Shown here: positions 43,196 through 59,731 of the stretch, in pieces
Layout of the letters: each line of letters starts with the position of its first letter
Numbering within the stretch: the first letter of the stretch is position 1
Source: Armatimonadota bacterium
Lineage (GTDB): Bacteria > Armatimonadota > SYMT01
Direction: 5' to 3'
Length of the DNA stretch: 64,000 nt
NCBI GenBank assembly: GCA_041690135.1
Contig: JAWLHY010000004.1
Span: forward strand, 192,001-256,000
Notes under the pieces: generated by a model
Seen by the model: the letters and a program-made list of their open reading frames with translations, nothing else
Told to the model about the DNA's origin: nothing
The model's database searches: none
Program-made: the position numbers and the translations under genes

Positions 43196-45346
43196 CTACT
43201 GCTTCTTCACCCTGTTTTCCAGAAGGGTATTCAAGCCGGACTTGAAGCCCTGCACGTCACTAGGCTTTGCTGGCGTGGCCCCCGGCCCGATGGGGCCACC
43301 TTGATAGAAACGTGTCATATACAGCGAGCGCGGCTGGATAACGGCATTCGCCAGAATGACACTCTCGTGATGCGTTCTCTTGTTGCCCCGAGGTAGCTGG
43401 AACACGGGACCGATGAGAGGCAAACGGCCCAGGATGGGAATGTAGTGCGGTGCCTGCGGATGAGAGGTAGCCAGAGAGAAAGATGAGACATCGAAGAGAT
43501 CGAAAGCCGTCACCGTTGTGTCCGTCACGACCTGGTGGCTCTTTACGGCATCCGCAGGCCGCGCGGGTTTAAGGTCTGGTCGTTCCTCCCCAAGCACCGA
43601 GGTTTCCACACCGAAACGGAAGTTGAGCTGAAGCCTGGCGGACTGCTCATCGGGAAGTACAGATGGCACTACTTTCACTTCCACGCCCGGAGCCACACTC
43701 GTAAACCTAGGCTGGACGTCCGAAAGAATAGCACTACCCAGCAGAAGAGCCTGCGCCTGTGGCAGAGGCGCAAGTAACTGCTGAAGCCCACTCAACTGTC
43801 CCAAAGCATCACCACCGGGCGCTCGGTTGGCAGAGCTGGGAGTAGTCTTAGTAGTTTTTGTCACGCTCCCATCCGGGGCGGTCACCTCAGTGACTTCAGT
43901 CGTTGGAGTGACACTAACCTTGGGGTGTGTTGCATCGAGAAGATCCGTTCCGAATGGCCTCGGAAGGGTAGCGTCCACGAACGCCACCACCTCTGGGCGC
44001 AGGAATGCATCAGCTCGATGAGCCACGGAGATGCGAGTGGTTCCGCCCAACGCCACGCCACCGCCACGGATTTGCCGCTTCTGGATGCGCGAAAGGAGGG
44101 GCTGCAAGAAGAGTTCCTGCATGTCGGCGGTCCAAGTGTCCATCAGCCCTTTCAGTAGGCGGTCAACCGCAGCGGCTTGCTGGTTCAACTCTGCGGGCTG
44201 CTGCTCGAGGAACGGGAGATGCTCCTCCTTCAAACCTGTAGGGGGCATGGGAAAGGTGTCATTCACGTACTCAAGGAAGGAACTATAACCTTCCAGAGCT
44301 AAAACGAAATCTTCTACTCCTGCCCGGTCAGCGTCAACCTGATCCTTCGAGAGTGCCTGCTGCAGCCTGCGAAAGGGCTGAACCCCTATGCTCTTCCCAA
44401 GTGCACTGTACTCGTTGGCCAACGCCTTTGCCAGTTGGTCTCGCTCCTCTGACAGTCCCAAGAACACCAAGGCTTCAATAAGCGAAAGAGGCCGGTCGAC
44501 ACTGGATACAAACCCCTGTGCCTCGAGCTTATTAAATAGTTTATCATTGTTGAATAAGGCACTATTCTGCTTAAGCACCTTGAGAAGTGCGATGTGGGCT
44601 CCGTGGAGATGCTCCCGAGTATCCCGGATATCACGAGTAATGTCGCGGGTCTCCTCGCTAACGCGGTCCGCATCTCCGCTAACTTGCACTGCCCACATTT
44701 CCAGTTGAACCTGCGGTGCCGGGGCATCGAGGCTATGGATGAAGCTACGGATCTGCAGGACTGTCCGTTTGGGGGCCTTGATCCACAGGTTATACCGATC
44801 GTGAAATGCTACCGGCTTCTTGTCAGTCCCGTAAACGGCGTTGAGAATCGTCGTCAGCAACTCCATCGCGACCTGCGAAGAGACGGCAGATCCCGTCCCA
44901 CCCGGAACAATGGTCAGGGGAATGAGTTCCCGGGTGATCGGGTTTGACTTCTCGTCCTCGACATCCTTGACCGTCCGTACCTGCAACTTGTCAAGATTGA
45001 GATGGACCTTGGCGTCAAGATGGTGCTTCTTTAACGCTGCCACTGCGAGCCTCTTGACCTGCTCCTTGGGGTCTTGCCCTGCTTTGGGGGGCGGCAGAAT
45101 CCCCGAGAGCACCGCCACGTAGTTCTCACCGGGCAAGACAAATACCTCAACCGCCACATCCGGTTGGTTGATACCAAGTTCCAATAGCTGGATGATGCCC
45201 GCCACGTACTTCTGGTCGGCCTCCGCAGCCCACACAGCCTGTCCTGTAGGTACTCCGGAGAGTGGGGGAAGAGCAGCCAACACCAGAAGAGATCCAGCCA
45301 ATGCTACGCCAAAGGCAGCTTTTGGCGACTTGCGAGGATGCGACAT
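43196..45346 (-). CDS. Divergent orphan secretin (N3 + secretin domain with large helical insertion)
   Basis: Signal peptide; NLWIKAP...IHSLDAPAPQVQLEMWAVQVS; C-terminal IPILGRLPLIGPVF...ESVILANAVI. Confidence 0.68.
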   Translation of the reverse strand: MSHPRKSPKAAFGVALAGSLLVLAALPPLSGVPTGQAVWAAEADQKYVAGIIQLLELGINQPDVAVEVFVLPGENYVAVLSGILPPPKAGQDPKEQVKRLAVAALKKHHLDAKVHLNLDKLQVRTVKDVEDEKSNPITRELIPLTIVPGGTGSAVSSQVAMELLTTILNAVYGTDKKPVAFHDRYNLWIKAPKRTVLQIRSFIHSLDAPAPQVQLEMWAVQVSGDADRVSEETRDITRDIRDTREHLHGAHIALLKVLKQNSALFNNDKLFNKLEAQGFVSSVDRPLSLIEALVFLGLSEERDQLAKALANEYSALGKSIGVQPFRRLQQALSKDQVDADRAGVEDFVLALEGYSSFLEYVNDTFPMPPTGLKEEHLPFLEQQPAELNQQAAAVDRLLKGLMDTWTADMQELFLQPLLSRIQKRQIRGGGVALGGTTRISVAHRADAFLRPEVVAFVDATLPRPFGTDLLDATHPKVSVTPTTEVTEVTAPDGSVTKTTKTTPSSANRAPGGDALGQLSGLQQLLAPLPQAQALLLGSAILSDVQPRFTSVAPGVEVKVVPSVLPDEQSARLQLNFRFGVETSVLGEERPDLKPARPADAVKSHQVVTDTTVTAFDLFDVSSFSLATSHPQAPHYIPILGRLPLIGPVFQLPRGNKRTHHESVILANAVIQPRSLYMTRFYQGGPIGPGATPAKPSDVQGFKSGLNTLLENRVKKQ

Positions 45347-45411
45347 GTGTTCTCCTTATCTAGGTGCTCACTCGTATGAGTTGAGCATTTGAGGCAAGCC
45401 ACGGTATGCGT

Positions 45412-46374
45412 TCAGGGGATCCGACCCCGAAAGTAGACTTCCACATGGGGGCTGCGTGCGACTTCATCGGGAGCGACTGCGGGACGAACGACGTTCCGAA
45501 CCATCCAATTCGACCAGCGGCGTGCAATCACAGCGTGGTAGAGGGGATCATTACTGTCCACATCAAACCCAATATGGTCATACATCTTCCAAACAAGCTG
45601 TGAGCAGTAGAGCCGGCGGTTGGTGTGCTTGTCCCAGAAGAAGAAGTTATAGGGCGTGTGTCCTCCCGACCTGAAGGTCGTCAATGCGCGACTGAGTGCC
45701 AGGGGTATTTGCGGCCGAACTTCCGCCGCACGGCAACGCCCAAACGCAATCACAGCCCCTTTACGTTTCTTCCAGTCATCCAAGAGATGGTGATTCACAC
45801 CATCGTGGAAATTCGATTCATATACTTTCGGCGGGGTCCCGCCGGCAAAGACCCCCACATGCCCGTATTGATCGGCCCAAGACCAGTTTTTGGAACTGTC
45901 GCCGTCTCGGATAAAGATGAGGTCTCCTACTTCTAACTGGTTGTAGTTGGGAGCAACGTTTGGCGAAGGAGCCATCGCCATCGCCGAGAGAAAGCTCATA
46001 TCGAGTGCCGACTTACTCTCTTCCTGGCGGAGAAGACCCTCAATGGCAGTTACACGCGTGAGGATAGTCTCAATCTCTTCGTGTGGAATATCGCTCTGCA
46101 GGCGCGCCACCAGCATTTTGGCCTCGTCCCGCAGTTCACTCTCACGTTCGCTTGGAGGGATGCGGTTTGCTGTGTTTAATGCCAGCGCTGCTATATCCGG
46201 GGCGACCCCCCGCCCAGGATAAGCCTGGACGCGCGCTACCTCGTTTGCAATCCTCCGAATGTCACTCCGGATACGCGACGATTCGACAGTCTCGGGTGAG
46301 AAATGTGTACTTCCCGCCTGCGTGGCGATTCCCACCAAGACTGCGAAGCACATCACAGCATTCTTCCCCTGCAT
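45412..46374 (-). CDS. Secreted permuted NlpC/P60 (YiiX/YebB-like) papain-fold amidase
   Basis: LEVGDLIF...YGHVGVF...PYN...YCSQLVWKMY (His before Cys); signal peptide; AGGAGAG RBS. Confidence 0.82.
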   Translation of the reverse strand: MQGKNAVMCFAVLVGIATQAGSTHFSPETVESSRIRSDIRRIANEVARVQAYPGRGVAPDIAALALNTANRIPPSERESELRDEAKMLVARLQSDIPHEEIETILTRVTAIEGLLRQEESKSALDMSFLSAMAMAPSPNVAPNYNQLEVGDLIFIRDGDSSKNWSWADQYGHVGVFAGGTPPKVYESNFHDGVNHHLLDDWKKRKGAVIAFGRCRAAEVRPQIPLALSRALTTFRSGGHTPYNFFFWDKHTNRRLYCSQLVWKMYDHIGFDVDSNDPLYHAVIARRWSNWMVRNVVRPAVAPDEVARSPHVEVYFRGRIP

Positions 46375-46929: not shown

Positions 46930-47508
46930 ATGGTGGAGGAGAGAGACTGCGAGCCGAGCCGGGTGAGTGACGAAGCGCTGATGGCGGCGTTCTACGAAGG
47001 CTCGGAGACGGCATTCCAGGCTCTGTCGGAGCAGTGGTGGCCGCGACTCTTCGGATATTTCCGCCGCAGAGGGGTCGGCGCCGAAGATGCGGAGGACCTG
47101 GCGCTGCAGACGCTGGTGAAGCTGTACGTGACCCGGGAACGGCGGAAGTTTGACGTCAACCTGCCGCTCGCCCCGTTCTTGTTCACCGTGGCGTACCGAC
47201 TGTATCAGGGATGGCTGCGAGACCAGGAACGAAACCCTGCCGGAGTGCCTCTCGTCGAGGCACTCGACCTGGCATCCGCACCGGAAGACCGGCACACCGG
47301 GCTCTCCGCGGACGTGCTCCACTGCATCGAGCGGCTACCGGAAGCAGAACAACTCTACGTGCAACTCTGTGCCCGGCATGGATTGGGGGACCTCTCCCAC
47401 AACGAAATCGCGGTCGTCATGGAGAAGTGGCCCGCGCAGATAACCCAGATCAGCAAGCGAACGCAGGCGCTGCTCCGGCAATGCCTGGAAAAGAAGGGCT
47501 ACCGGTAG
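46930..47508 (+). CDS. ECF sigma-70 factor
   Basis: SDEALM...AFQAL...AEDAEDLALQTLVKLY...FLFTVAYR (region 2); IERLPEAEQ...LSHNEIA (region 4). Confidence 0.85.
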   Translation: MVEERDCEPSRVSDEALMAAFYEGSETAFQALSEQWWPRLFGYFRRRGVGAEDAEDLALQTLVKLYVTRERRKFDVNLPLAPFLFTVAYRLYQGWLRDQERNPAGVPLVEALDLASAPEDRHTGLSADVLHCIERLPEAEQLYVQLCARHGLGDLSHNEIAVVMEKWPAQITQISKRTQALLRQCLEKKGYR

Positions 47509-47555: not shown

Positions 47556-48446
47556 ATGGATAATGAAATGCTGGAGGGTGTGCTGCGCGCGTTACGGGCA
47601 AGGCTGGGGGAGGTTGGCCCCAGTGGGCCAGTGTTCGCTGACGGTTGCCTGACTTTCGGACGGGCGCGCGCCCTGGCCCTGGATCCGGAACGGATGACGG
47701 CCCAGGAACAATCGCACCTGGAAACTTGTCGGCGTTGCCTGACGCTACTGACGAGTTTCCTCCGTGACCTTCCCCACCTACCCTACTGGGTTCTCTTGCG
47801 CAAACGGCTGAACCTGTTGTCGCCTCAGGAACAACGGTGGGTGGAGTATCACCTGGTTTCGGGAGGCTGCCGGAAATGCCGGAACCGGGATGAGCGGGTG
47901 GCTGGAAGCCCGAACTTCCCCTTACTGCTCCCCGCTCCCAGGCAGCTTCCACACCCGGCCGAAGCGCGGGCGGCGGTACCGGAGCCGGAGGTCCTGGTGC
48001 GCGGAAAGGGGGAGAATCTCGAAGCGGAGCTCGTGCTAGATCGGGACCAGCTCAGTCTGGAGATCCGCACCCGCGCCGAGGCATTGCATTACACGCTCGT
48101 CACCTATGCGTTTCAGGACGCGACGGGCGAGGCGCTCCTCGACGGCTATGCCGTGCTGGGCCCCGACGTGGACGGCTGGTTCTCTGCCGAGATTCCGCTG
48201 AATCCGCGTCAGTTCCGCGAGGAGGTCTTTAAGATGTGCCGGCACCTGGCGCTCGCAGCGGTGCTGCCGGGGGGGCTCTCCGACGAGGAGTGGCGCGCGG
48301 TGGAGGCCGCAGCGCCCACCCAGGCGGGGGAATTGCAGACCCGGTCCGCGTGGCAGGTGTGGGCCAGCCGCACCCTGCTGTCCGGAGCTTCCCTTTCCGA
48401 AGCGGCAATCCGGGCACTCAGCCACCTCGCGGACATACGCGCTTAG
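47556..48446 (+). CDS. Putative soluble anti-sigma factor with two ZAS/zf-HC2 motifs
   Basis: HLETCRRC and HLVSGGCRKC; directly after the ECF gene; no TM; alternative GTG start at 47544. Confidence 0.65.
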   Translation: MDNEMLEGVLRALRARLGEVGPSGPVFADGCLTFGRARALALDPERMTAQEQSHLETCRRCLTLLTSFLRDLPHLPYWVLLRKRLNLLSPQEQRWVEYHLVSGGCRKCRNRDERVAGSPNFPLLLPAPRQLPHPAEARAAVPEPEVLVRGKGENLEAELVLDRDQLSLEIRTRAEALHYTLVTYAFQDATGEALLDGYAVLGPDVDGWFSAEIPLNPRQFREEVFKMCRHLALAAVLPGGLSDEEWRAVEAAAPTQAGELQTRSAWQVWASRTLLSGASLSEAAIRALSHLADIRA

Positions 48447-48487: not shown

Positions 48488-51115
48488 ATGCCGAGCCTGA
48501 GCGAACTCACCCGACAACTGGCGGAAGGCACCCGGGCGCAGAAGCGGCGGAGTTGGCGGTCCCTCATCCTGGAGGGAGGCTTGTGGCCCGCGTGTCAGGC
48601 GGCGCTCCTGGAAGCATCTCCCCTCGACTGTCTGGGGGCTGCCTACGAGCACCTGTCCGCCGAGTGGGACCGCTCCCCCCTCCGCGCGGGAGACGCGGAG
48701 GAGGTCTGTCGTGTTGAACAGCAGATCGCTGAAGCTCGCAAGGTCGTGGCAGCGGCCGCTCTCGCGGCCCTGGCACGCGGCGAAGCGCCGGGTGAGTGGT
48801 TGGAAAAGTGGGCGTACCGGGCGGTGGGCAACCTTCCGCCTTTCCGGGTGCTGACCGCGGGAGTGACTGCCGGTGGCCCGAGTGAGGCCCGCATCCGCGC
48901 CTGCTTCGCCGGGCTGCTGAACAGCTCCTCCATATCGCGGCCTATGGTAGCGGCGGCACAGGACGCCAGCCTGGCATTCCTCTGGGCCGCTCTCGGCGAG
49001 GAGAAGCGTCCCTGTCACCGTCGCCTGCGAGTGCCCCTGCTGCTGGCGCGCGGAACCGAAGGCTTTCTCGCCTGGCTCTGGTTGGAGCAGGTGCCCGGGG
49101 GCTCGGGACAGGTGTTCCAGGCGCCCAGCACGACCCTGGAGCCCATCCTGGCCGATCTGCGCCGGACGATCGAACAGGCCTGCCTGGCGGTACTGCCGGC
49201 CGGAGGGGATGCGGACCTACGCTGGTGGCTCACCGACCTGCCCCTGGACGCCCAGGGCCTGCCGATCCCGGTCGGCGGCGGTTCGGCGGCGGCGGCGGCG
49301 GCTGTCGGAGCGTTGCTCCTGCTACAGGATGCCCCGCCGGCCGCGAACTGCGCCGTAAGCGCCACCCTAACCGCGGACGGACGGCTGGGCCCGGTAGAGG
49401 GACTTCACGGCACGGGCCCCAAGCTCACCGCCGCGCGAGCCCTCGCGGCCGTTGACCGGCCCGCCCGGGTCATCGTCAGCCCGGAGAGCCAGTTGTCCGC
49501 GCCTGCCGCGGCCGGATGGGAAGCGCGCGGTGTTCAGGTCGTCGTCGCCCCTTTCCTGGAGGAGGCCGTGCGGCATTTCCTGTCCCCGAGAGAGACTAAA
49601 GAGCAAGATCGGCGCAGCGAGTCGACCATGCCGCTTTCCGCGTCACCGAGGATACCCGCTCCGCAGATCCGGGTGATTTACGCCCGGGACACGCCCGCCG
49701 ATCGGGAACTGCTGGAGAAGCTGCAGAACCAACTACGGGAGCACGGGTTTTCAGTGGGGGCCGACCGCCACCAGGACGTGGGGCTCGAATGGGCGCGCGA
49801 GACGGAGCGGGAGATCCGGGCGGCGGACGTGGTATTGGTACTGCTTTCTCGTGCGGCCGCCCGCAGTGAGATGCTCGCCTACGAGCTTCAGATTGCCCAC
49901 GAGGCCGCACAAGGCACGGGAAAGCCACGGCTGCTCGCCGTAGACACCCGGGTAGGCGCTGCGCCACGCTGCCTGCCCGGTCTCACCGCCACCCTGGCAA
50001 CTTACCCGTGGGAACCAGGCATGGATGCGGACGCCCTTCCGCCCGCACTGTTGGACGCAATCCGGAAGCCGCCGGGAGTCGCCTCGCGCCAGGAACGGGA
50101 ACAATTGGTCCCCCCTACCGGCGTGCTGCCGCTGGATTCCGCTTTTTATCTGGAGCGCGACGCGGACGCGGCCTTCCGCACCGCCATGGGGCGCCGGGAC
50201 AGCATCATCCGGATCAAGGGTGCACGCCAGATGGGCAAGACCTCGCTCCTGGCGCGCGGATTGCAGGCGGCCCGGGAGCAGGACGCCCGCGTGTTCCTCA
50301 CCGATTTTCAGCTCTTCAACCAGTCCCATCTGGAGTCGGTAGACCACTTCCTGTTAACGCTCGCCCGCTGGCTGGCCCGGCAGGCTGCGGTGGATCTCCA
50401 GCCGGATGAAGTGTGGGACTCCCTCCAGGGCGCCAGCGTCAACTTCCGTGACTTTCTCCTGGAGTTGCTGGAGCGCCTGCCCGGCCCCGTGGTTTGGGGG
50501 CTGGATGAAGTCGACCGCCTCTTCACCTGCCCCTTCCGCAGCGAAGTGTTCGGACTACTCCGGTCGCTGCACAACGACCGGGCCCTCAATCCCCGTCTTC
50601 CCTGGTCCAAACTGACGATGACCCTCTGCTACGCCACGGAGGCTCACCTCTTCCTCGCCGACCTGAACCAGTCCCCCTTTAATGTAGGCACCCGGATCCT
50701 GCTCAATGACTTCTCGCCCCTTGAGCTGGCGGATCTCAACCTGCGCTACGGCGCACCGCTGACCAGTAGTGGAGAGTTGGCCGCCTTCTACGAGCTCCTG
50801 GCAGGGCACCCTTACCTTAGCCACCGGGCTCTCCATGAAATGGTGACTCAAGAGCTGACACTAGCCGATCTGCAGCGCCAGGCCAACCGGGAGGAAGGGC
50901 TGTTTGGAGACCACCTGCGGCGGCTGGTGCTGCTGCTGGCCAGGGACCCCGCCCTTTACCATGCCGTACGGGAGGTGATCCAGGGACGCCCCTGCCCCAC
51001 GCCGGAGAGCTTCCATCGCCTCTGGACAGCAGGCGTACTGGTGGGGGATTCCGCGCAAGACGCCCGCCCTCGCTGCTATCTGTACGCCACCTATCTGGAG
51101 CGTCACCTGCAATGA
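48488..51115 (+). CDS. Lon (S16)-like protease domain + TIR domain + AAA_35 NTPase fusion
   Basis: VGGGSA...AVSATLTADGRLGPVEG...PKLTAA; TIR IYARD...EW...IRAADVVLVLLS...SEMLAYEL; FYLER...KGARQMGKTSLL, LDEVD, QSPFNVG, GHPYL. Confidence 0.8.
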   Translation: MPSLSELTRQLAEGTRAQKRRSWRSLILEGGLWPACQAALLEASPLDCLGAAYEHLSAEWDRSPLRAGDAEEVCRVEQQIAEARKVVAAAALAALARGEAPGEWLEKWAYRAVGNLPPFRVLTAGVTAGGPSEARIRACFAGLLNSSSISRPMVAAAQDASLAFLWAALGEEKRPCHRRLRVPLLLARGTEGFLAWLWLEQVPGGSGQVFQAPSTTLEPILADLRRTIEQACLAVLPAGGDADLRWWLTDLPLDAQGLPIPVGGGSAAAAAAVGALLLLQDAPPAANCAVSATLTADGRLGPVEGLHGTGPKLTAARALAAVDRPARVIVSPESQLSAPAAAGWEARGVQVVVAPFLEEAVRHFLSPRETKEQDRRSESTMPLSASPRIPAPQIRVIYARDTPADRELLEKLQNQLREHGFSVGADRHQDVGLEWARETEREIRAADVVLVLLSRAAARSEMLAYELQIAHEAAQGTGKPRLLAVDTRVGAAPRCLPGLTATLATYPWEPGMDADALPPALLDAIRKPPGVASRQEREQLVPPTGVLPLDSAFYLERDADAAFRTAMGRRDSIIRIKGARQMGKTSLLARGLQAAREQDARVFLTDFQLFNQSHLESVDHFLLTLARWLARQAAVDLQPDEVWDSLQGASVNFRDFLLELLERLPGPVVWGLDEVDRLFTCPFRSEVFGLLRSLHNDRALNPRLPWSKLTMTLCYATEAHLFLADLNQSPFNVGTRILLNDFSPLELADLNLRYGAPLTSSGELAAFYELLAGHPYLSHRALHEMVTQELTLADLQRQANREEGLFGDHLRRLVLLLARDPALYHAVREVIQGRPCPTPESFHRLWTAGVLVGDSAQDARPRCYLYATYLERHLQ

Positions 51116-54100
51116 TTCCGGACGTCTCCGATTTTTACGTCACCGGCGGCACGCTGAGTCAGGACACTCCTTCCTACGTGGCCCGCCGCGCCGACTCGGA
51201 GTTGTACAGAGGCCTCCGGCGTGGGGAGTTCTGTTACGTACTAACCGCGCGGCAGATGGGGAAGTCCTCGCTCATGGTGCGCACCGCCGAACGTCTGCGC
51301 GAGGACGGCTTCACGGTGGCAACCCTCGACCTCACCATGGTGGGCCAGAACCTGACGATCGAGCAATGGTACTACGGTCTGCTCAATCTCCTCGGGCGCC
51401 AGTTGGGCCTGCGGCCGCAACTGCGCGAATTCTGGTTACAGCACGCGCAATTGAGCCCTCTGCAGCGCTTCATGACCGCCCTGCGCGAAGTCGTCCTGGA
51501 GCAGTTGGTCGCGACAGAGCAGCACACGTCCACCGCTGTGGCCGGCCTGCAGGACCCGAGCCTCGCCAGTGCTGAGGAAAGCACTGGCGCGCCCTCCCCT
51601 CTTCCCGCTCCACCCTCTCACACTCACCACGCCTGCGCGCCTCGCCTCGTCCTGTTCATCGACGAGATCGATACCGTCCTCAGCCTTCCGTTCAGTACCG
51701 GGGAGTTCTTCGCCGCCATCCGGGAATGCTACAACCGGCGGTCCGAAGACCCCGCGCTGGAGGGCCTCACTTTCTGCCTCCTGGGGGTGGCTTCTCCTTC
51801 CGACCTGATACGCGATCCCCGCACCACCCCCTTCAACATCGGCCTTCGGATCGAACTCCAGGACTTCACCCTGACCGAGGCCGGTCCCCTGGCTGTTGGG
51901 CTCCAACTAGGCGCGGCGGGTGCTCCCCTCCGGTCGCCCAGGGTCGCGCTGCGGCTACTCCGCAGGATCCATTACTGGACAGACGGGCATCCCTATCTCA
52001 CCCAGCGGCTCTGCCGAGCAGTGGCGGAAGACCCGACCGCACGCGATCGCCGTGGCGTGGACCGGATCTGCCGCCGCCTCTTCCTGGAGCCGGGGGCGCA
52101 GCAACGCGACGACAACCTGCTCTTTGTCCAGGAACGGTTGACCTCCGGGGGCGGCGACACCGCCGGGTACCTGGAACTGTATTCCCGGATCCGGGCCGGC
52201 CGGCCGGTCCCCTGCGACGAGCGAGATCTCCGGGTGCCCACTCTCCGGCTCTCCGGCATCATCGGTGTGCGCCGGAACCTGCTGCGGGTGCGCAACCGGA
52301 TCTACTACACCCTGTTCGATCAACGCTGGGTGCAGTCCCATCTTCCGGATGCGGAGGTCCGGCGACAACTCGCCGCCTATCGCCGGGGTCTGCTGCGGTC
52401 CACTCTCCTTTCGAGCCTGGTCATCCTCGCATTGGCCGGCCTTTCCGTGGGTCTCTTTCACCAGCGCAACACCGCACGGAGGGCCTCCGCCACATACGCT
52501 CTGCAACGAGGAATACAACTGCTGCGGGATGGTGACGGGACTGGCCTGCTCGATCTCCTCGAAGCGTACCGAACCGCGGGAGGCGACCGCGATCTCCAGC
52601 AGTCCATTGGGAGAATCTGGGCGGGCTGGTACAACACCCACGCCGGACGCTTGATGGAAGTTCTGGATGCTGGGGAGGACATCGCCGCGCTGGCCGTTCG
52701 ACCCGACGCCAGGCAGCTTGCAGTAGGCGGCGCCCAAGGTGGACTGCGCCTGTACAACACCTCGAACTGGACGTCCGCCAGTCCCGCCCTGCGACATCCG
52801 GAACCTCTGACACAACTAGTGTACGCTGCCCGGCGGCCCTTCCTGGCGGGCCGCGGAGACCACATGGTTCAGGTGTGGGACCACTCCGGAAGCCGGTTAC
52901 TGCACCGGTTTCGCTCACCGGACCGCATCCGTGCTGTAAGCTTTGTCGGATCAGGCGAGCTTCTTGCGGTCCGCACTACACGCCAGGTTCACCTCTGGGA
53001 GACTACCGGCTGGCACGCAGTTCCTTCACCGAACACCGGCACGGATGGAGTGGTGGACGCAGCGTTCGGACCGGGACGGGATAGACCCGTAGCGCTAGCA
53101 ACCACGCACGGAGTAATCCTCCATTGGCTCAGAAGCGGACGGCAGCATCTCCTGCGACTGCCGGAGGGTGGTGTCAATCACCTTCAGTTCAATTCTACCG
53201 GCAAACTGCTTGCCCTTTCCTGGGGCGATCGCCTACGCCTCTGGGACGTGGAGAGGAGATCTTTTCGGCCGGAAATCTTCAATTCTCCCGAGCCCATTAA
53301 GGCGGTGCAGTTCGGCCCACGAGACTGTCTCATCGCCCAGTCGGAAGAAATGGTGCGCCTCTGGTCAACCAGCGAGTACCCGGGGATGGGCCTTCCGCTG
53401 CCGCACGGTGCGGAGATCCGCACCACGACCCTGCCAGAAAGGGGACCGTCGATTCTGACCCTGTCCGCAAGTCGCATCCGTCTGTGGGACCTGGCGACCG
53501 GTCGGGAGCGGGCGAGTGTTGCAAACCAGGGAGGATTCGGGGCCGTGGCGTGCGACCCACAGTTCCGCTGGATCGCCTCCGCACCCACCGGCAGTACCCT
53601 GCGGATCTGGAAGTTCCCAGCCAACCCCTCCCCCAACGAAGTAGTCGGACGCAACGTCGCGCCGGAACTCGCCTGGTATCAAATGGACGGAAGCGCGCTT
53701 CACACAGCGGACCGCAATACGATGTTCATCCGGACCGGCCATACCGGACGGAGAACAACCGAACGGCGGGATTTAAGGGGAACCGGTTATCGGCTGGCAG
53801 TCAGCCCCCAGCGGGAGTTCCTGGCAACCACTGGAACCGGCTCCCTTCACCTGTGGAACGGCCGAACGGGTGATCCGCTGGGGAGACCTCTACCCCACAC
53901 CGGTGTGCCGAGTTGTCTCGATTTCAGCCCAAGTGGGAAACAGATCGCTCTGGGATCCGACTCTCGGCACCTCTGGATCTCAGACACGGCAACCAACCAG
54001 CTAACCAGGCCACCCCTAGAGCTACCCTTTGCACCCCAATACACTGCATTCAGCACGGTTGGTTCTTGGGTCGCGGCGGCGGACACCAAACGGATTGAAG

Positions 54101-54801
54101 TCCACTCCCTTAACGGCCAGGCGGAACATTATCGGATTCAACCCGAGGGCGCGATCTTCTGGATTGGCTTCATTCCCGGCACTCAAGTGCTGATCGCGGC
54201 GGCCGGCAATACCCTGACGCAGTACGACTGCTCGTCCGGGAGTTCCCAACTCCGAGTGGTTCACCTGCCGGCTCGTCTTCGGAGTGTCGCGTGCGATTAC
54301 CCTCGCGGAAGGCTGGCGATTGCGACAAAGGATCACCAGGTCCGCATCCTCGGCCTCCACCAGATGCAACCCGTTGGCCCTGAACTCCGCCTGGAGGAGC
54401 CGGTGAGCACAATGGCCTTCAGCGCGGACGGCACGTCGCTTGCTACCTGTACAGCATTCAGAATGGTTCAGGTCTGGGATCTGCGCACAGGTCAGCCGAC
54501 CGGTCAGCGGCTGGCGCACCCGACACTGGTGCGAACTCTCGAGTTTCATCCGGAAGGCGAGGAACTGGCCGCGCTCACGGATAGCGGCCTTCACCTCTGG
54601 AAGCTTCCCAGGCCGGAGGTATCTCTACAAGAGATGCAGCGAATGTCCTGGGTGGCCCTCGACACCTGGAGTATTGGCCAGGCGGTCGAAGCCATTCCCG
54701 CCGGGGTATGGCGCCGAATGCGGGATGGGCTCCGCGCACGATTGGCGGGAAAGCCAGAAGTCGGTCGACCTAGGCCCGCCCCACGGATAGCCAATCTGTA
54801 G
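51112..54801 (+). CDS. AAA_35 NTPase + single TM + WD40 repeat protein
   Basis: YVTGGTL...SYVARRAD, ARQMGKSSL, FIDEID, TPFNIG, WTDGHPYLTQRLC, VRNRIY; hydrophobic LLSSLVILALAGLSVGLF; many LWD/VWD/FSP repeats; ATGA overlap. Confidence 0.88.
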   Translation: MIPDVSDFYVTGGTLSQDTPSYVARRADSELYRGLRRGEFCYVLTARQMGKSSLMVRTAERLREDGFTVATLDLTMVGQNLTIEQWYYGLLNLLGRQLGLRPQLREFWLQHAQLSPLQRFMTALREVVLEQLVATEQHTSTAVAGLQDPSLASAEESTGAPSPLPAPPSHTHHACAPRLVLFIDEIDTVLSLPFSTGEFFAAIRECYNRRSEDPALEGLTFCLLGVASPSDLIRDPRTTPFNIGLRIELQDFTLTEAGPLAVGLQLGAAGAPLRSPRVALRLLRRIHYWTDGHPYLTQRLCRAVAEDPTARDRRGVDRICRRLFLEPGAQQRDDNLLFVQERLTSGGGDTAGYLELYSRIRAGRPVPCDERDLRVPTLRLSGIIGVRRNLLRVRNRIYYTLFDQRWVQSHLPDAEVRRQLAAYRRGLLRSTLLSSLVILALAGLSVGLFHQRNTARRASATYALQRGIQLLRDGDGTGLLDLLEAYRTAGGDRDLQQSIGRIWAGWYNTHAGRLMEVLDAGEDIAALAVRPDARQLAVGGAQGGLRLYNTSNWTSASPALRHPEPLTQLVYAARRPFLAGRGDHMVQVWDHSGSRLLHRFRSPDRIRAVSFVGSGELLAVRTTRQVHLWETTGWHAVPSPNTGTDGVVDAAFGPGRDRPVALATTHGVILHWLRSGRQHLLRLPEGGVNHLQFNSTGKLLALSWGDRLRLWDVERRSFRPEIFNSPEPIKAVQFGPRDCLIAQSEEMVRLWSTSEYPGMGLPLPHGAEIRTTTLPERGPSILTLSASRIRLWDLATGRERASVANQGGFGAVACDPQFRWIASAPTGSTLRIWKFPANPSPNEVVGRNVAPELAWYQMDGSALHTADRNTMFIRTGHTGRRTTERRDLRGTGYRLAVSPQREFLATTGTGSLHLWNGRTGDPLGRPLPHTGVPSCLDFSPSGKQIALGSDSRHLWISDTATNQLTRPPLELPFAPQYTAFSTVGSWVAAADTKRIEVHSLNGQAEHYRIQPEGAIFWIGFIPGTQVLIAAAGNTLTQYDCSSGSSQLRVVHLPARLRSVACDYPRGRLAIATKDHQVRILGLHQMQPVGPELRLEEPVSTMAFSADGTSLATCTAFRMVQVWDLRTGQPTGQRLAHPTLVRTLEFHPEGEELAALTDSGLHLWKLPRPEVSLQEMQRMSWVALDTWSIGQAVEAIPAGVWRRMRDGLRARLAGKPEVGRPRPAPRIANL

Positions 54802-54839: not shown

Positions 54840-55253
54840 ATGATCAACGCGATGTGCCTTTACGAGGTAGACCCCATCAAAGCTCAAGACCTGGCGGATT
54901 ACGAGTATGCAGCGAAGTTCAACCTCTCCGTGAGCATGGATGTATCACCCAACGAGCGCCTGGTACTTTACGTGGACATCGATCCAACACTCAAGGACAG
55001 CCCCATTGTCAAAGAGCTTCTCCAGACGACCCTGGAAGTAATGGCCACCCGCCCTGTGAAGACGGAAGCTGCCGGAGGCGAATACAAGCCGTGCTACCAC
55101 GGATTCCACCTTCACAACCCTGTTAGTGGCACTCAGGGAGCTTGCACTCTTGATTCACACCACACGAGTTGTGATAGCTTCGGACCGGATACGGAGCAGA
55201 GTTGTGTGGCGTCCAGCTCCAAGTTCAAGTGCACCCATATCGAGCAACCGTAG
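54840..55253 (+). CDS. Small hypothetical protein with Cys/His-rich C-terminus
   Basis: Strong GAAAGGAG RBS; 137 aa; five Cys and six His after AAGG. Confidence 0.65.
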   Translation: MINAMCLYEVDPIKAQDLADYEYAAKFNLSVSMDVSPNERLVLYVDIDPTLKDSPIVKELLQTTLEVMATRPVKTEAAGGEYKPCYHGFHLHNPVSGTQGACTLDSHHTSCDSFGPDTEQSCVASSSKFKCTHIEQP

Positions 55254-56435: not shown

Positions 56436-57968
56436 ATGAAACAGCGACATGGCGAGGGAGACCGACTCTTCCCGGGAAGCGCCCGGCTTGAAGCTCGGGG
56501 GATTGAGATCACGGAGGCAACAGCTCTCTTGAGCACTTTCACCGGCCCTGGGCAGTTCGGGTTGTTGTTTCCCGACCTGAATCCCTTCCGGCCTACCGAC
56601 GCCCAACTCATGGCGCTCGGTAAGGCGATGGAAGACGCAAACTTCCGCGACAAACCGGAGCCCAAAGCCGGTGACCATCCTTCGCTCCCCGCCGGCTACA
56701 CGTATCTCGGTCAGTTCGTGGATCACGACATTACGTTCGATAAAATGCGGTCCATACCGCCACAGGCCGTAGATCCGGCCACCCTCAAGCAGGCACGGAC
56801 TCCGGCGCTCGATCTCGACTCGCTCTATGGCTTGGGACCGGAAACAGATCAAGGCCTGTATCAATTGGATTTCGGCCCGGACCACGCTCGTTTCAAGATC
56901 GGTGCTACCCGCGGCGAGGAGACCGCGGGGGATCAACTCCTCAAACAGTCCCTGCCGCACGATCTCTTCCGCAATGCTGAAGGGGCAGCCGTGATCGCGG
57001 ACGAGCGCAATGACGAGAACGTCGTGATTGCACAGTTGCACCTCGCCTTTCAGCGCTTCCACAACAAGGTTCTCGACGGGTTGGCGGCGGGTACGGTGGC
57101 GTCGGCCGGAGGCGACACCCCTTTCGAGCAGGCGCGCCGGCTGGTCCGGTGGCATTACCAGTGGATTGTTTGGGAGGATTTCCTACCCCGGATCGTTGAC
57201 CCCGCAGTGCTTCAGAGAGTCCGCAAGGAGGGTCGGAAGCATTACCAGTGGGACGTGGCGAGCGGCCCCTATATGCCTCTAGAGTTCTCGGTGGCGGCCT
57301 ACCGGATGGGGCACAGTCTGATCCGCCAGTCATACGAATTCAATCGCGTTTTTAGTACCGGGTCGGGAGAGGGAAGAGCCAGGCTCCATCAACTGCTACT
57401 CAACACCGGACCCGGCGTCGAAGTTCCCTTGGAAACGAAGTGGATCATCGACTGGCAACACTTCTTCTCGCTCGACCCAGCGGTGAGCCCCAATCCCTCC
57501 CGCCGCCTGGACACCGTCCTTGCGAACCCGCTGGGGGAACTAATGCGGTTTGTGAACACCTCCGACCTGCCGGCATCGCTGGCCCAGCGCAACCTGCTGC
57601 GGGGCAGCCGGTTAGGGTTGCCCTCCGGACAGGACGTGGCAAAACACCTTGGCATCCCACCCCTCACGAAGGATGAGTTGTCTACCGGCAAGACCGGGGA
57701 CGCAGCCGCGACGGCGGAACTGGTCGAGCAGACGCCGTTGTGGTTCTACATCCTCAAAGAGGCCGAGATGCGGGAAAGCGGCGAGCGCCTGGGGCCGGTG
57801 GGGAGCCTTATCCTGGCGGAGGTGTTCGTCGGGCTGCTGGAGGGGGACCCGGAGTCCTTCTTCCGCGCGGATTCCCCCTGGGTGCCCACGCTCGGTCCGG
57901 TGCCGGGGCAGTTCACCATGGCTGATCTTCTCCGTTTTGTAGGATACGTCAACCCGCTGGGCAAGTAG
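56436..57968 (+). CDS. Heme peroxidase, peroxidase-cyclooxygenase (animal-type) superfamily, copy 1
   Basis: GYTYLGQFVDHDIT, DLDSLYG, DERNDEN, FHN, RWHYQWI, AAYRMGHS, TPLWFYILKEA. Confidence 0.9.
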   Translation: MKQRHGEGDRLFPGSARLEARGIEITEATALLSTFTGPGQFGLLFPDLNPFRPTDAQLMALGKAMEDANFRDKPEPKAGDHPSLPAGYTYLGQFVDHDITFDKMRSIPPQAVDPATLKQARTPALDLDSLYGLGPETDQGLYQLDFGPDHARFKIGATRGEETAGDQLLKQSLPHDLFRNAEGAAVIADERNDENVVIAQLHLAFQRFHNKVLDGLAAGTVASAGGDTPFEQARRLVRWHYQWIVWEDFLPRIVDPAVLQRVRKEGRKHYQWDVASGPYMPLEFSVAAYRMGHSLIRQSYEFNRVFSTGSGEGRARLHQLLLNTGPGVEVPLETKWIIDWQHFFSLDPAVSPNPSRRLDTVLANPLGELMRFVNTSDLPASLAQRNLLRGSRLGLPSGQDVAKHLGIPPLTKDELSTGKTGDAAATAELVEQTPLWFYILKEAEMRESGERLGPVGSLILAEVFVGLLEGDPESFFRADSPWVPTLGPVPGQFTMADLLRFVGYVNPLGK

Positions 57969-58073
57969 TGACGGGCACTGCAAAGCGGGTCGTTTCCGCC
58001 ACCTCGCAGCGCGTGCGCCCGGCGGCTCTGGAACCCGGCAAATTCAGGGAAGGGGCCGACACAGCAGCAAGAC

Positions 58074-58101
58074 TGAAAAATGTTGGCCCGTTCGGCGTAC
58101 T
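58074..58101 (+). promoter_or_regulatory. Putative ECF promoter C (TGAAAA-N16-CGTACT)
   Basis: Exact match to site B in both boxes and spacing; 61 nt before ATG 58163. Confidence 0.72.
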
Positions 58102-58162
58102 GACAGCATGGGGACGGCTTTACCGTCCCCAACATCACCTACGGCGAACGGAGGCTACCCTC

Positions 58163-59731
58163 ATGCAACGGCACCACGGAGACGCGCCCCGCCTGCTGCC
58201 CGGCAACCCGGCCCTGGATGCGCAGGGAGCAGAGATCACGCGGAGCGTATCGGTCCTGAGTACCTTCACCGGCCCCGGCGAGTTCGGCCGGATGCTGCCC
58301 GACCTCTTGCCCTTCCGGCCGAGCGATCGGGCACTCATCGAACTGGGTGTGGCGATGGAGGACGCCGATTTCGGCACGGACCCGGAAGACCCGGACGGGG
58401 ACAACCCGAACATCCCCGCCGGCTTCACCTATTTCGGGCAGTTCGTCGATCACGACATCACCTTCGATAAGACGGAGGGATTTCCCGACGAGGCCCTGGA
58501 CCCGGAGGTGATTGTGCAGGCCCGCACGCCTTCCCTGGACCTCGACAGCCTCTACGGTTTGGGGCCGGAGCTCCAGCCGGACCTGTACGAGCCGGGAGAT
58601 CCGGCGGACCGCGCCCGGTTTCGGATTGGCGCTACCAGCGGGGAGTCGTCACCCGATGAAACGGGGCAGCCCCTCCCTGTTTCGCTGCCGCACGACCTTC
58701 CACGGGGCGCCGATAACCGGGCCCTGATCGGCGACCCGCGCAACGACGAGAACCTGGCGGTAGCGCAAACTCATCTCGCGTTCCTCCAATTCCACAACCG
58801 GGTGCTGGAGCAGCTCCTGGCGGGCGAAGTGGCGCCGGTCTGTACGGGAACGCCCTTCGAGCAGGCCCGGCAGATCGTGCGCTGGCATTACCAGTGGATC
58901 GTGCTCCACGACTTCGTGGCCCGCCTGGTGGATCCGGAAATCCTGGCTCGCGTGCTGGCGGAAGGGCGCCGCTTCTATCTGTGGGAACAGCATCCCTCGG
59001 GACGCCCCTTCATGCCCATCGAGCATTCCGTGGCGGCCTACCGCCTGGGCCACAGCATGATCCGGCAGAACTACAACTTCAACCGGGTGTTCCGCACCGG
59101 TGGGCTGGCCGTGGCCGGGCTCGATCTCCTGTTCCACTTCACCGGAAACAACCGGCCGGCGCCCGTGCCGGGACTGCCACCGGGCGCCCCCATTCCTTCG
59201 AACTGGATCATCGATTGGAGGCGTTTCTTCGCGCTCGACCCGGCGGTAACGCCGAACGCTTCCCGCAAGCTGGACACCCGCCTGGCCAACCCGCTCCGCT
59301 CGCTACCGGAGTTCCGGGGCACCGACAACCAGCCGGAGTCTCTCGCGCAGCGCAACCTGCTGCGCGGCAGCCGTCTCGGTCTTCCCTCCGGACAGGACGT
59401 AGCCGAGCGCCTGGACATCGATCCGCTCCCGGCAGAGGTCATTGCCACCGGACCGGCGGGAGAGGTGGCGGCTCGGCATCACCTGCAGCACCAGACCCCC
59501 CTCTGGTTCTACATCCTGAAAGAAGCGGAGGCGCTCGAAAGCGGGGTCCGGTTAGGACCGGTGGGCAGCATCCTCATCGCGGAGGTATTCGTGGGGCTCC
59601 TCCAGGGAGATCCGCTCTCCTTCATGAAGGCCGATCCGGATTGGAAGCCCACGCTCCCGTCCGCCACGCCAGGCGCCTTTTCCATGGCCGACCTGCTGGC
59701 CTACGTCGGCAACGTCAACCCCCTGGGATGA
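58163..59731 (+). CDS. Heme peroxidase, peroxidase-cyclooxygenase superfamily, copy 2
   Basis: GGAGG RBS; GFTYFGQFVDHDIT, DPRNDEN, AAYRLGHS; collinear paralogue of copy 1. Confidence 0.9.
   Translation: MQRHHGDAPRLLPGNPALDAQGAEITRSVSVLSTFTGPGEFGRMLPDLLPFRPSDRALIELGVAMEDADFGTDPEDPDGDNPNIPAGFTYFGQFVDHDITFDKTEGFPDEALDPEVIVQARTPSLDLDSLYGLGPELQPDLYEPGDPADRARFRIGATSGESSPDETGQPLPVSLPHDLPRGADNRALIGDPRNDENLAVAQTHLAFLQFHNRVLEQLLAGEVAPVCTGTPFEQARQIVRWHYQWIVLHDFVARLVDPEILARVLAEGRRFYLWEQHPSGRPFMPIEHSVAAYRLGHSMIRQNYNFNRVFRTGGLAVAGLDLLFHFTGNNRPAPVPGLPPGAPIPSNWIIDWRRFFALDPAVTPNASRKLDTRLANPLRSLPEFRGTDNQPESLAQRNLLRGSRLGLPSGQDVAERLDIDPLPAEVIATGPAGEVAARHHLQHQTPLWFYILKEAEALESGVRLGPVGSILIAEVFVGLLQGDPLSFMKADPDWKPTLPSATPGAFSMADLLAYVGNVNPLG

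Follow-up and report, generated by a model that had tools for sequence, protein, structure and literature searches.

Gene organization of the locus

The window analyzed here comprises 64,000 nucleotides of the genome of an Armatimonadota bacterium (assembly GCA_041690135.1, contig JAWLHY010000004.1, forward strand positions 192,001 to 256,000; coordinates without a locus label are those of the window) and carries a conserved row of genes built around an 875-residue protein in which a Lon-type Ser-Lys protease domain, a TIR domain and an AAA_35 ATPase domain are fused in one chain. Upstream of the protease gene lie the genes for an extracytoplasmic function (ECF)-type sigma-70 factor and an anti-sigma-like partner protein, a pair that was overlooked in an earlier note on this DNA; downstream lie the gene for a likely receptor, which overlaps the protease gene by 4 bases, and a small gene without a Pfam family (Table 1). 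The gaps along the row are 47, 41 and 38 bases. On balance, we consider it probable that receptor-driven oligomerization activates the protease, which would then cut the anti-sigma factor and release the sigma factor.

A second full cassette of this kind is present on another contig (C7) of the same genome, and two further ones were found in metagenome contigs. The window sigma gene matches many NCBIfam sigma-70 models (sigma70-ECF at E 6e-10, under the curated cut-off) and is 43-52% identical to the sigma genes of three related loci (L001, L015 and L016). The receptor contains the Walker motifs TARQMGKS and VLFIDEID and a predicted membrane helix at residues 431-449 (52402-52458; hydropathy 2.21); this is the coupled AAA_35-WD40 protein that the earlier note had expected to be required for activation. 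A homologue of the 137-residue protein is encoded in the corresponding position of L015 (25% identity, E 1e-11); in the genome, the gene is present in a single copy and hence is missing from the paralogous cassette.

Table 1. Genes, domains and sites of the protease cassette
Feature	Coordinates	Strand	Evidence and remarks
ECF-type sigma-70 factor, 192 residues from ATG	46930..47508	+	Mechanical open reading frame (ORF) start is GTG 46873; Pfam Sigma70_r2, E 1e-4
Soluble zinc-finger (zinc-binding anti-sigma, ZAS-type) anti-sigma-like partner, 296 residues	47556..48446	+	Two Cys/His motifs in a helical N-terminal half, followed by a beta-sandwich and a helical tail; putative anti-sigma role
Ala-rich stretch AEARAAVPEP, partner residues 135-144, candidate cleavage site and degron	47958..47987	+	Ala enrichment; analogy with LAAA of CalpT
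Protease ORF, 875 residues	48488..51115	+	Translation
Helical N-terminal domain of protease, residues 1-169, putatively substrate-docking	48488..48994	+	Model; conserved with Lon domain
Lon-type (S16) protease domain, residues 178-368	49019..49591	+	Ser266 at 49283-49285; Lys312 at 49421-49423
TIR domain, residues ~389-530	49652..50077	+	Glu466 at 49883-49885; Pfam TIR_2; accessory in family
AAA_35 (presumably STAND-like) ATPase, without sensor domain	50114..51100	+	Walker A 50219-50242; Walker B 50501-50515; Pfam AAA_35
Likely receptor: AAA_35-like ATPase, one predicted membrane helix, WD40 propellers	51112..54801	+	Pfam AAA_35, E 8e-21, and WD40
His/Cys-rich protein, 137 residues, end of gene row, possibly a cassette member	54840..55253	+	No Pfam family

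Domain architecture of the protease

The Pfam scan of the protease detected TIR_2 (residues 398-499, E 2e-13) and AAA_35 (residues 543-871, E 2e-69); of the three models suggested for searching in the earlier note, two matched and the third, Lon_C, did not, and the chain lacks a sensor domain, as that note had stated. A search of the PDB with the single sequence reached Lon at an E of 1.5 only, and a profile was required: with 10 sequences, the matches were mostly Lon proteases (best 8dvh, E 9.5e-4), with Ser266 and Lys312 aligned to the Ser and Lys of Lon. The spacing of 46 residues between the two, compared to 43 in Escherichia coli Lon, is as originally read from the sequence and is accounted for by a 3-residue insertion in this alignment. 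The AlphaFold model, which is confident over residues 1-366, agrees with the profile alignment in assigning the expected Lon protease fold to this region: compared with the proteolytic domain of E. coli Lon (1rr9), it yields a Foldseek E of 8e-8 and a Z of 19.9, with a root-mean-square deviation of 2.5 over 170 residues. The TIR domain of the model reaches a Z of 15.9 to a TIR. The unassigned N-terminus ahead of the Lon domain is indeed helical, residues 4-169 being modeled as all-helical with a predicted local distance difference test score (pLDDT) mostly of 80-90, and this domain is kept along with the Lon domain in many full-length homologues.

Both Walker motifs are intact, GARQMGKT (Walker A) beginning at residue 578 and LDEVD (Walker B) at residue 672, in agreement with the initial prediction. 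We take AAA_35 to be related to the signal transduction ATPases with numerous domains (STAND). The protease does not have the organization of the housekeeping LonA and LonB proteins, given that its ATPase is an AAA_35 domain located C-terminally, rather than a Lon-type AAA+ domain N-terminal to the protease domain. Eight independent proteins share the Lon-TIR-AAA_35 architecture and, therefore, the fusion is not an assembly artefact. Split homologues, which the earlier note had proposed to look for, exist in two forms, namely, TIR-less Lon-AAA_35 proteins and Lon-less TIR-AAA_35 proteins. Because both split forms exist and the linker at residues 368-388 has a low pLDDT, the region near the in-frame ATG at 49628 (Met381) appears to represent a fusion seam, one of the two possibilities raised for this codon. 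The other one, a protease-less isoform made from an internal start, was rejected as a conserved feature: a Met occurs in the Lon-TIR linker of just 4 of the 17 TIR-bearing homologues, and no clear Shine-Dalgarno sequence was seen ahead of 49628.

Conservation and spread of the protease family

A profile of the N-terminal and Lon module retrieved 547 representatives at E 1e-3 and 142 at 1e-10. Among the best 150 of the 547 matches, the catalytic Ser is present in 136 of the 137 proteins that cover the position and the Lys in 127 of 133; the two residues rank first and fifth among the 40 columns invariant in the seed (0.99 and 0.95, with many other columns at 0.3-0.8), and this conservation holds at 20-50% overall identity. 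The spacing between the two ranges from 43 to 52 residues, with 43 found in 60 of 125 relatives. We scanned with Pfam 89 of the 102 listed proteins of at least 600 residues, leaving out 13, and found NACHT in 49, Lon_C in 21 (at E 1e-3 or better), HEAT_2 in 20, AAA_35 in 11, TIR_2 in 8 and WD40 in 6.

In an unrooted tree with several long branches, one branch (96/95) separates the 18 Lon domains of the family that come from the loci compared below from 17 LonA domains and 5 further Lon-like ones. Other stand-alone Lon-like proteins of the same phylum, with signal peptides or TPR-like tails (L008-L013), fall outside the family in this tree. One locus (L071, 6798-12495) encodes a Lon-AAA_35 protein without TIR together with a receptor, and the Lon domain of this pair groups with a NACHT-type member, not with the clade of the window; this placement hints that the AAA_35 platform might have been recruited twice.

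A broad profile matched 324 of the 401 genomes; judging from the 17 loci that were checked, these matches are mostly housekeeping Lon, so that this figure cannot count members of the family. No match to the family was found in plasmids. Two pattern scans of genome contigs found nothing, and the gene neighborhoods are thus confined to one phylum. That the family may reach further is hinted at by a single protein, of 20 looked up, that carries the name 'Candidatus Binatia', and by Atlas clusters rich in Acidobacteriota and Planctomycetota.

Association with sigma factors and exchange of receptor modules

The comparison of gene neighborhoods covered 18 loci, namely, the window, L001, L015, L016, L028-L035 and L066-L071. 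In 13 of the 18, an intact gene that matches a sigma-70 hidden Markov model (HMM) lies no more than two genes away from the protease, and the count rises to 14 when a broken sigma gene in L032 is included; the sigma-linked loci span several families of the phylum. Sigma factors were called with Pfam and NCBIfam models; an HMM built from four sigma sequences was too narrow and missed true sigmas. Around a constant core of protease, sigma factor and partner, the ATPase and sensor parts vary: an AAA_35 pair, NACHT, NB-ARC, or none. The proteases of L067 and L068 lack an ATPase and continue instead into a hydrophobic segment and repeats, yet a sigma-like gene still adjoins each of them. The linkage follows the Lon module, given that all 5 Lon-AAA_35 loci carry a sigma gene compared to 0 of the 4 Lon-less AAA_35 loci of this genome, where 62 flanking ORFs were scanned.

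These four Lon-less loci (L002, 4163-7797; L003, 7386-13844; L004, 3252-9912; L005, 4637-11048) show the AAA_35 platform with swapped heads. At three of them, the head is a winged helix-turn-helix protein with a BTAD transcription activator domain and, at the fourth, a tandem of cyclase-TIR and TIR forms. Because BTAD replaces the protease at three loci, the output of the AAA_35 platform elsewhere appears to be transcriptional as well. At L032 (5435-11861), the sigma-like gene broken by a stop codon is accompanied by a ThiF/E1-like gene, a partner consisting of the C-terminal part only and a Lon-NACHT-FGS protein.

The partner as a candidate anti-sigma factor

The product of the gene between the sigma factor and the protease is predicted to lack membrane helices and contains two Cys/His motifs, H54-C61 (HLETCRRC) and H99-C108. 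Its model (pLDDT 86.5) places these motifs in the helical N-terminal half, and H54, C58 and C61 are invariant in 5 of 5 homologues. The combination of H-x3-C-x2-C, a soluble helical domain and an adjacent ECF sigma gene is the hallmark of ZAS proteins; the more relaxed pattern H-x3-5-C-x2-C is present in 11 of 16 partner proteins, and zf-HC2 was weakly matched in the partners of L030 and L031. Beyond the seeds, homology to the window partner was detected with profiles in L028, L031, L066 and L070. Taken together, these features suggest that the partner is likely an anti-sigma factor. Given that the sigma/anti-sigma-like pair travels with the protease module, the partner also appears to be the most likely target of the protease.

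A candidate cleavage site is found close to the beginning of the beta-sandwich. Of 232 windows in the alignment of the 16 partners, that of residues 135-144 has the highest Ala content (0.34 compared to a mean of 0.134, standard deviation 0.051), and this rank persists after three close relatives are dropped; the stretch recurs at one alignment position in partners that are 18-67% identical to that of the window. The best structural matches of the beta domain were MATH/TRAF domains (Z 7.8), within the background range, and CalpT was not among the matches. A complex prediction for protease residues 1-366 with partner residues 122-296 scored 0.43, compared to 0.61 for a control, and was counted neither for nor against.

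Proposed mechanism and alternatives

The following sequence of events, modeled on CalpL and on general STAND biology, would account for these observations. At rest, the zinc-finger half of the partner would hold the sigma factor inactive. A ligand or an envelope cue at the WD40 propellers would cluster the receptor ATPase, and the clustered receptor would draw the AAA_35 domain of the protease into a common oligomer, in the manner of a sensor/helper pair. Neighboring Lon domains could then cut a substrate held by the helical N-terminal domain, in line with what has been proposed for filaments of CalpL. A cut within partner residues 135-144 would leave an Ala-Ala end for housekeeping proteases to remove. 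The freed sigma factor would turn on a regulon for defense or stress; the trigger may be a phage or an envelope or community cue.

Several points weigh against this interpretation. The putative sigma factor of L070 matched a helix-turn-helix model only; three of the 18 loci (L029, L034 and L035) end at contig ends, and no same-strand partner gene is present in the 1.1 kb upstream of the L034 protease. Every locus assigned to a genome is from one phylum, probably Armatimonadota judging from gene content, related loci are not independent, and the family was collected with a profile that already held the Ser and the Lys. For the window partner, neither Pfam nor NCBIfam gave a family and no solved structure matched clearly; its Ala-rich stretch is modeled as a short helix after the first beta-strand, not as a free linker. 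The partner of L067 shows no detectable homology to that of the window (hhalign probability 0.6), and neither it nor the partner of L068 contains a zinc motif. Finally, what the sequences establish is the parts and their linkage, and every functional step is predicted from CalpL and from STAND proteins at large.

The structured state of the Ala-rich stretch would also fit sigma control through another substrate (the protease might cut itself, the receptor, the sigma factor or the 137-residue protein) or release of the anti-sigma factor by binding without cleavage. The same holds for the partner of L032, of which only the C-terminal domain is left, and for those of L029 and L033, which are fused to HEAT repeats. 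We regard this alternative as unlikely because the stretch recurs at the same alignment position across diverged partners, the 137-residue gene is missing from the paralogous cassette, and the partner is retained where the receptor is exchanged or fused.

The TIR domain raises another alternative, namely, abortive infection with two effectors switched on by oligomerization, in which the TIR would act as an NADase and the protease would cleave an essential host protein, with the sigma/anti-sigma pair merely controlling expression of the operon. The window copy retains Glu466, as the earlier note had pointed out, in an S-x5-EL context (S460..E466) rather than the S-x4-EL given there, as well as an Asp in the region of the second strand. 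In phage defense, STAND proteins that carry a TIR or peptidase effector at the N-terminus are known (bioRxiv 10.1101/2022.07.19.500537, in the accessible part of that report), and ECF pairs that regulate defense islands exist (DdvA/DdvS; PMC11506125, likewise). Across the family, however, 3 of the 20 Lon-AAA_35 proteins have no TIR domain and 6 of the other 17 have Q, K, L or T in place of the Glu, the Thr-bearing paralogue on contig C7 of the same genome included; the Glu is kept in 11, of which 9 are close relatives. The claim of the earlier note that NAD+ cleavage is an output on a par with proteolysis thus fares poorly, with the TIR missing or lacking the Glu in 9 of 20 relatives. Furthermore, the first-strand motif is VIYAR, not the usual FISY, PADLOC matches are weak, the sigma genes track the protease rather than the ATPase or the TIR, and no shared promoter motif was seen in the four upstream regions compared. 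Abortive infection of this kind, accordingly, strikes us as distinctly improbable. The TIR domain looks accessory in the family and is probably an aid to oligomerization; judging from these replacements, NADase activity is possible in the window copy but cannot be the core function.

A non-catalytic scaffolding role for the Lon-like domain, of the kind found in RadA/Sms or ComM, is highly implausible: RadA and ComM domains do match the model (Z 13.9-16.8) and the protein has no Pfam Lon_C match, but the Ser and the Lys are kept at low overall identity among the listed matches and 21 of the 89 scanned relatives match Lon_C.

Extended to the whole family, release of a sigma factor by receptor-gated proteolysis leads to a more tentative proposal, for which we would claim slightly less than an even chance: widespread, CRISPR-independent 'transcriptional inflammasomes', in which a dedicated Lon clade behind interchangeable receptors would cleave a zinc-finger anti-sigma factor, resulting in gene expression instead of cell death. 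The receptors, with the same reservation, would be NACHT-HEAT, NB-ARC-TPR, NACHT-FGS, split AAA_35 pairs with a membrane WD40 receptor, and a bare membrane propeller. The window copy might, again tentatively, represent a sensor/helper pair of the NOD-like receptor (NLR) type that signals across the membrane.

Relationship to known systems

The closest functional parallel is CalpL-CalpT-CalpS, a type III CRISPR system of a SAVED-Lon protease, an anti-sigma factor and a sigma factor that is ECF-like, in which, according to the accessible parts of two reports (bioRxiv 10.1101/2024.05.08.593097; 10.1101/2024.05.08.593092), cleavage of CalpT by CalpL takes place within an LAAA motif, occurs in trans inside a filament and exposes a degron. 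As in CalpL, an N-terminal domain precedes the Lon Ser-Lys domain of the window protease (Z 11.9 to CalpL, 7qda, for the Lon domain alone); as in that system, the neighborhood includes an ECF-like sigma factor and a two-domain partner with an Ala-rich stretch between the halves, which in the window partner is a candidate cleavage site. Activation by oligomerization has been demonstrated for CalpL, whereas for the window protease it is predicted. Unlike CalpL, the window protein shows no SAVED match, its C-terminal part is occupied by TIR and AAA_35, its switch would be a STAND-type ATPase pair or a membrane receptor, and its Lon domain resembles LonA more closely in structure than it does CalpL. 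Unlike CalpT, the partner contains zinc-finger motifs; Pfam and fold searches gave no match to MazF-like or DUF2080 domains. There are no cas genes among the 20 ORFs at 36.6-64 kb of the window; cas10 was not searched for in the rest of the genome. With no SAVED domain and no CRISPR link seen, the cassette, by analogy, would work like CalpL/T/S without belonging to it.

By layout, the cassette is built like an NLR and is not an Avs. It shares with the bNACHT and Avs STAND proteins the order of effector, STAND ATPase and repeat sensor (HEAT, WD40, TPR and FGS sensors occur in relatives) and the intact Walker motifs, with NACHT as the ATPase in over half of the scanned relatives. It differs from them in that the sensor resides on a second chain predicted to span the membrane, the one-chain layout being found in many NACHT-HEAT relatives, and in that the system is predicted to release a sigma factor rather than to kill the cell. 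A Lon effector is not named in the accessible parts of two accounts of bacterial NLR-like STAND proteins (bioRxiv 10.1101/2022.07.19.500537; PMC13581612). Craspase (Csx29, Csx30 and CASP-sigma; PMC10028731, in part) likewise has a sensor-gated protease that cuts an anti-sigma-like protein tied to an ECF sigma factor; unlike here, its protease is CHAT/caspase-like, of an unrelated fold, and gated by the RNA-guided Cas7-11.

Soluble ZAS anti-sigma factors such as ChrR (PDB 2z2s) have an H-x3-C-x2-C motif and a C-terminal beta domain. The partner resembles ChrR in these respects and in being soluble, with a weak Foldseek match (E 0.02), and differs from it in having two zinc motifs and an adjoining dedicated protease gene instead of direct chemical sensing.

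To our knowledge, death or arrest of the cell is the usual outcome for those bacterial NLR-like proteins that have been tested, and the cases known to us of a dedicated protease that cuts an anti-sigma factor in an immune setting (CalpL and Craspase) are all linked to CRISPR. No Lon-STAND-sigma system was found in the literature covered, which included the accessible parts of PMC8195603, PMC7159879, PMC7826278, PMC11119718, PMC13581612 (with supplements) and bioRxiv 2022.07.19.500537; most subscription papers were beyond reach, and the supplements of the bioRxiv survey may list such architectures. Almost no literature was found on paired AAA_35 ATPases. If the proposed mechanism holds, the cassette would give bacterial NLRs a transcriptional output via proteolysis, joining the NLR theme with the protease/anti-sigma theme of CRISPR systems, and paired AAA_35 ATPases could be followed through a simple read-out, a single cut in one named substrate together with one sigma factor. 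Synthetic signaling could also make use of a protease module that operates downstream of many unrelated receptors.

Genes around the cassettes

Divergent from the window cassette, a stretch of lower GC content (about 0.56-0.61; 43196-46374, minus strand) encodes a YiiX/C92 papain-like amidase and a 716-residue secretin-like protein with an apparent signal peptide, each present in one copy in the genome; these genes are a candidate regulon or cargo of the cassette. Downstream, beyond a prepilin-like gene on the opposite strand, are two tandem genes for animal-type heme peroxidases (56436-59731, plus strand). The paralogous cassette on contig C7 may have two receptors, because another AAA_35-WD40 receptor gene, whose product has an apparent hydrophobic segment, is divergent from it (L001, 14205-17456; G000:C7). 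The flanks of L016 (48-2435 and 10102-12305) contain a gene with S8 and S41 protease domains upstream and, downstream, a small Cys-rich gene and a gene for a 597-residue protein without a Pfam family. At L066 (6961-7611, minus strand), a 216-residue ORF without a Pfam match lies ahead of the sigma gene and, by eye, resembles a degenerate N-terminus of an AAA_35 receptor.

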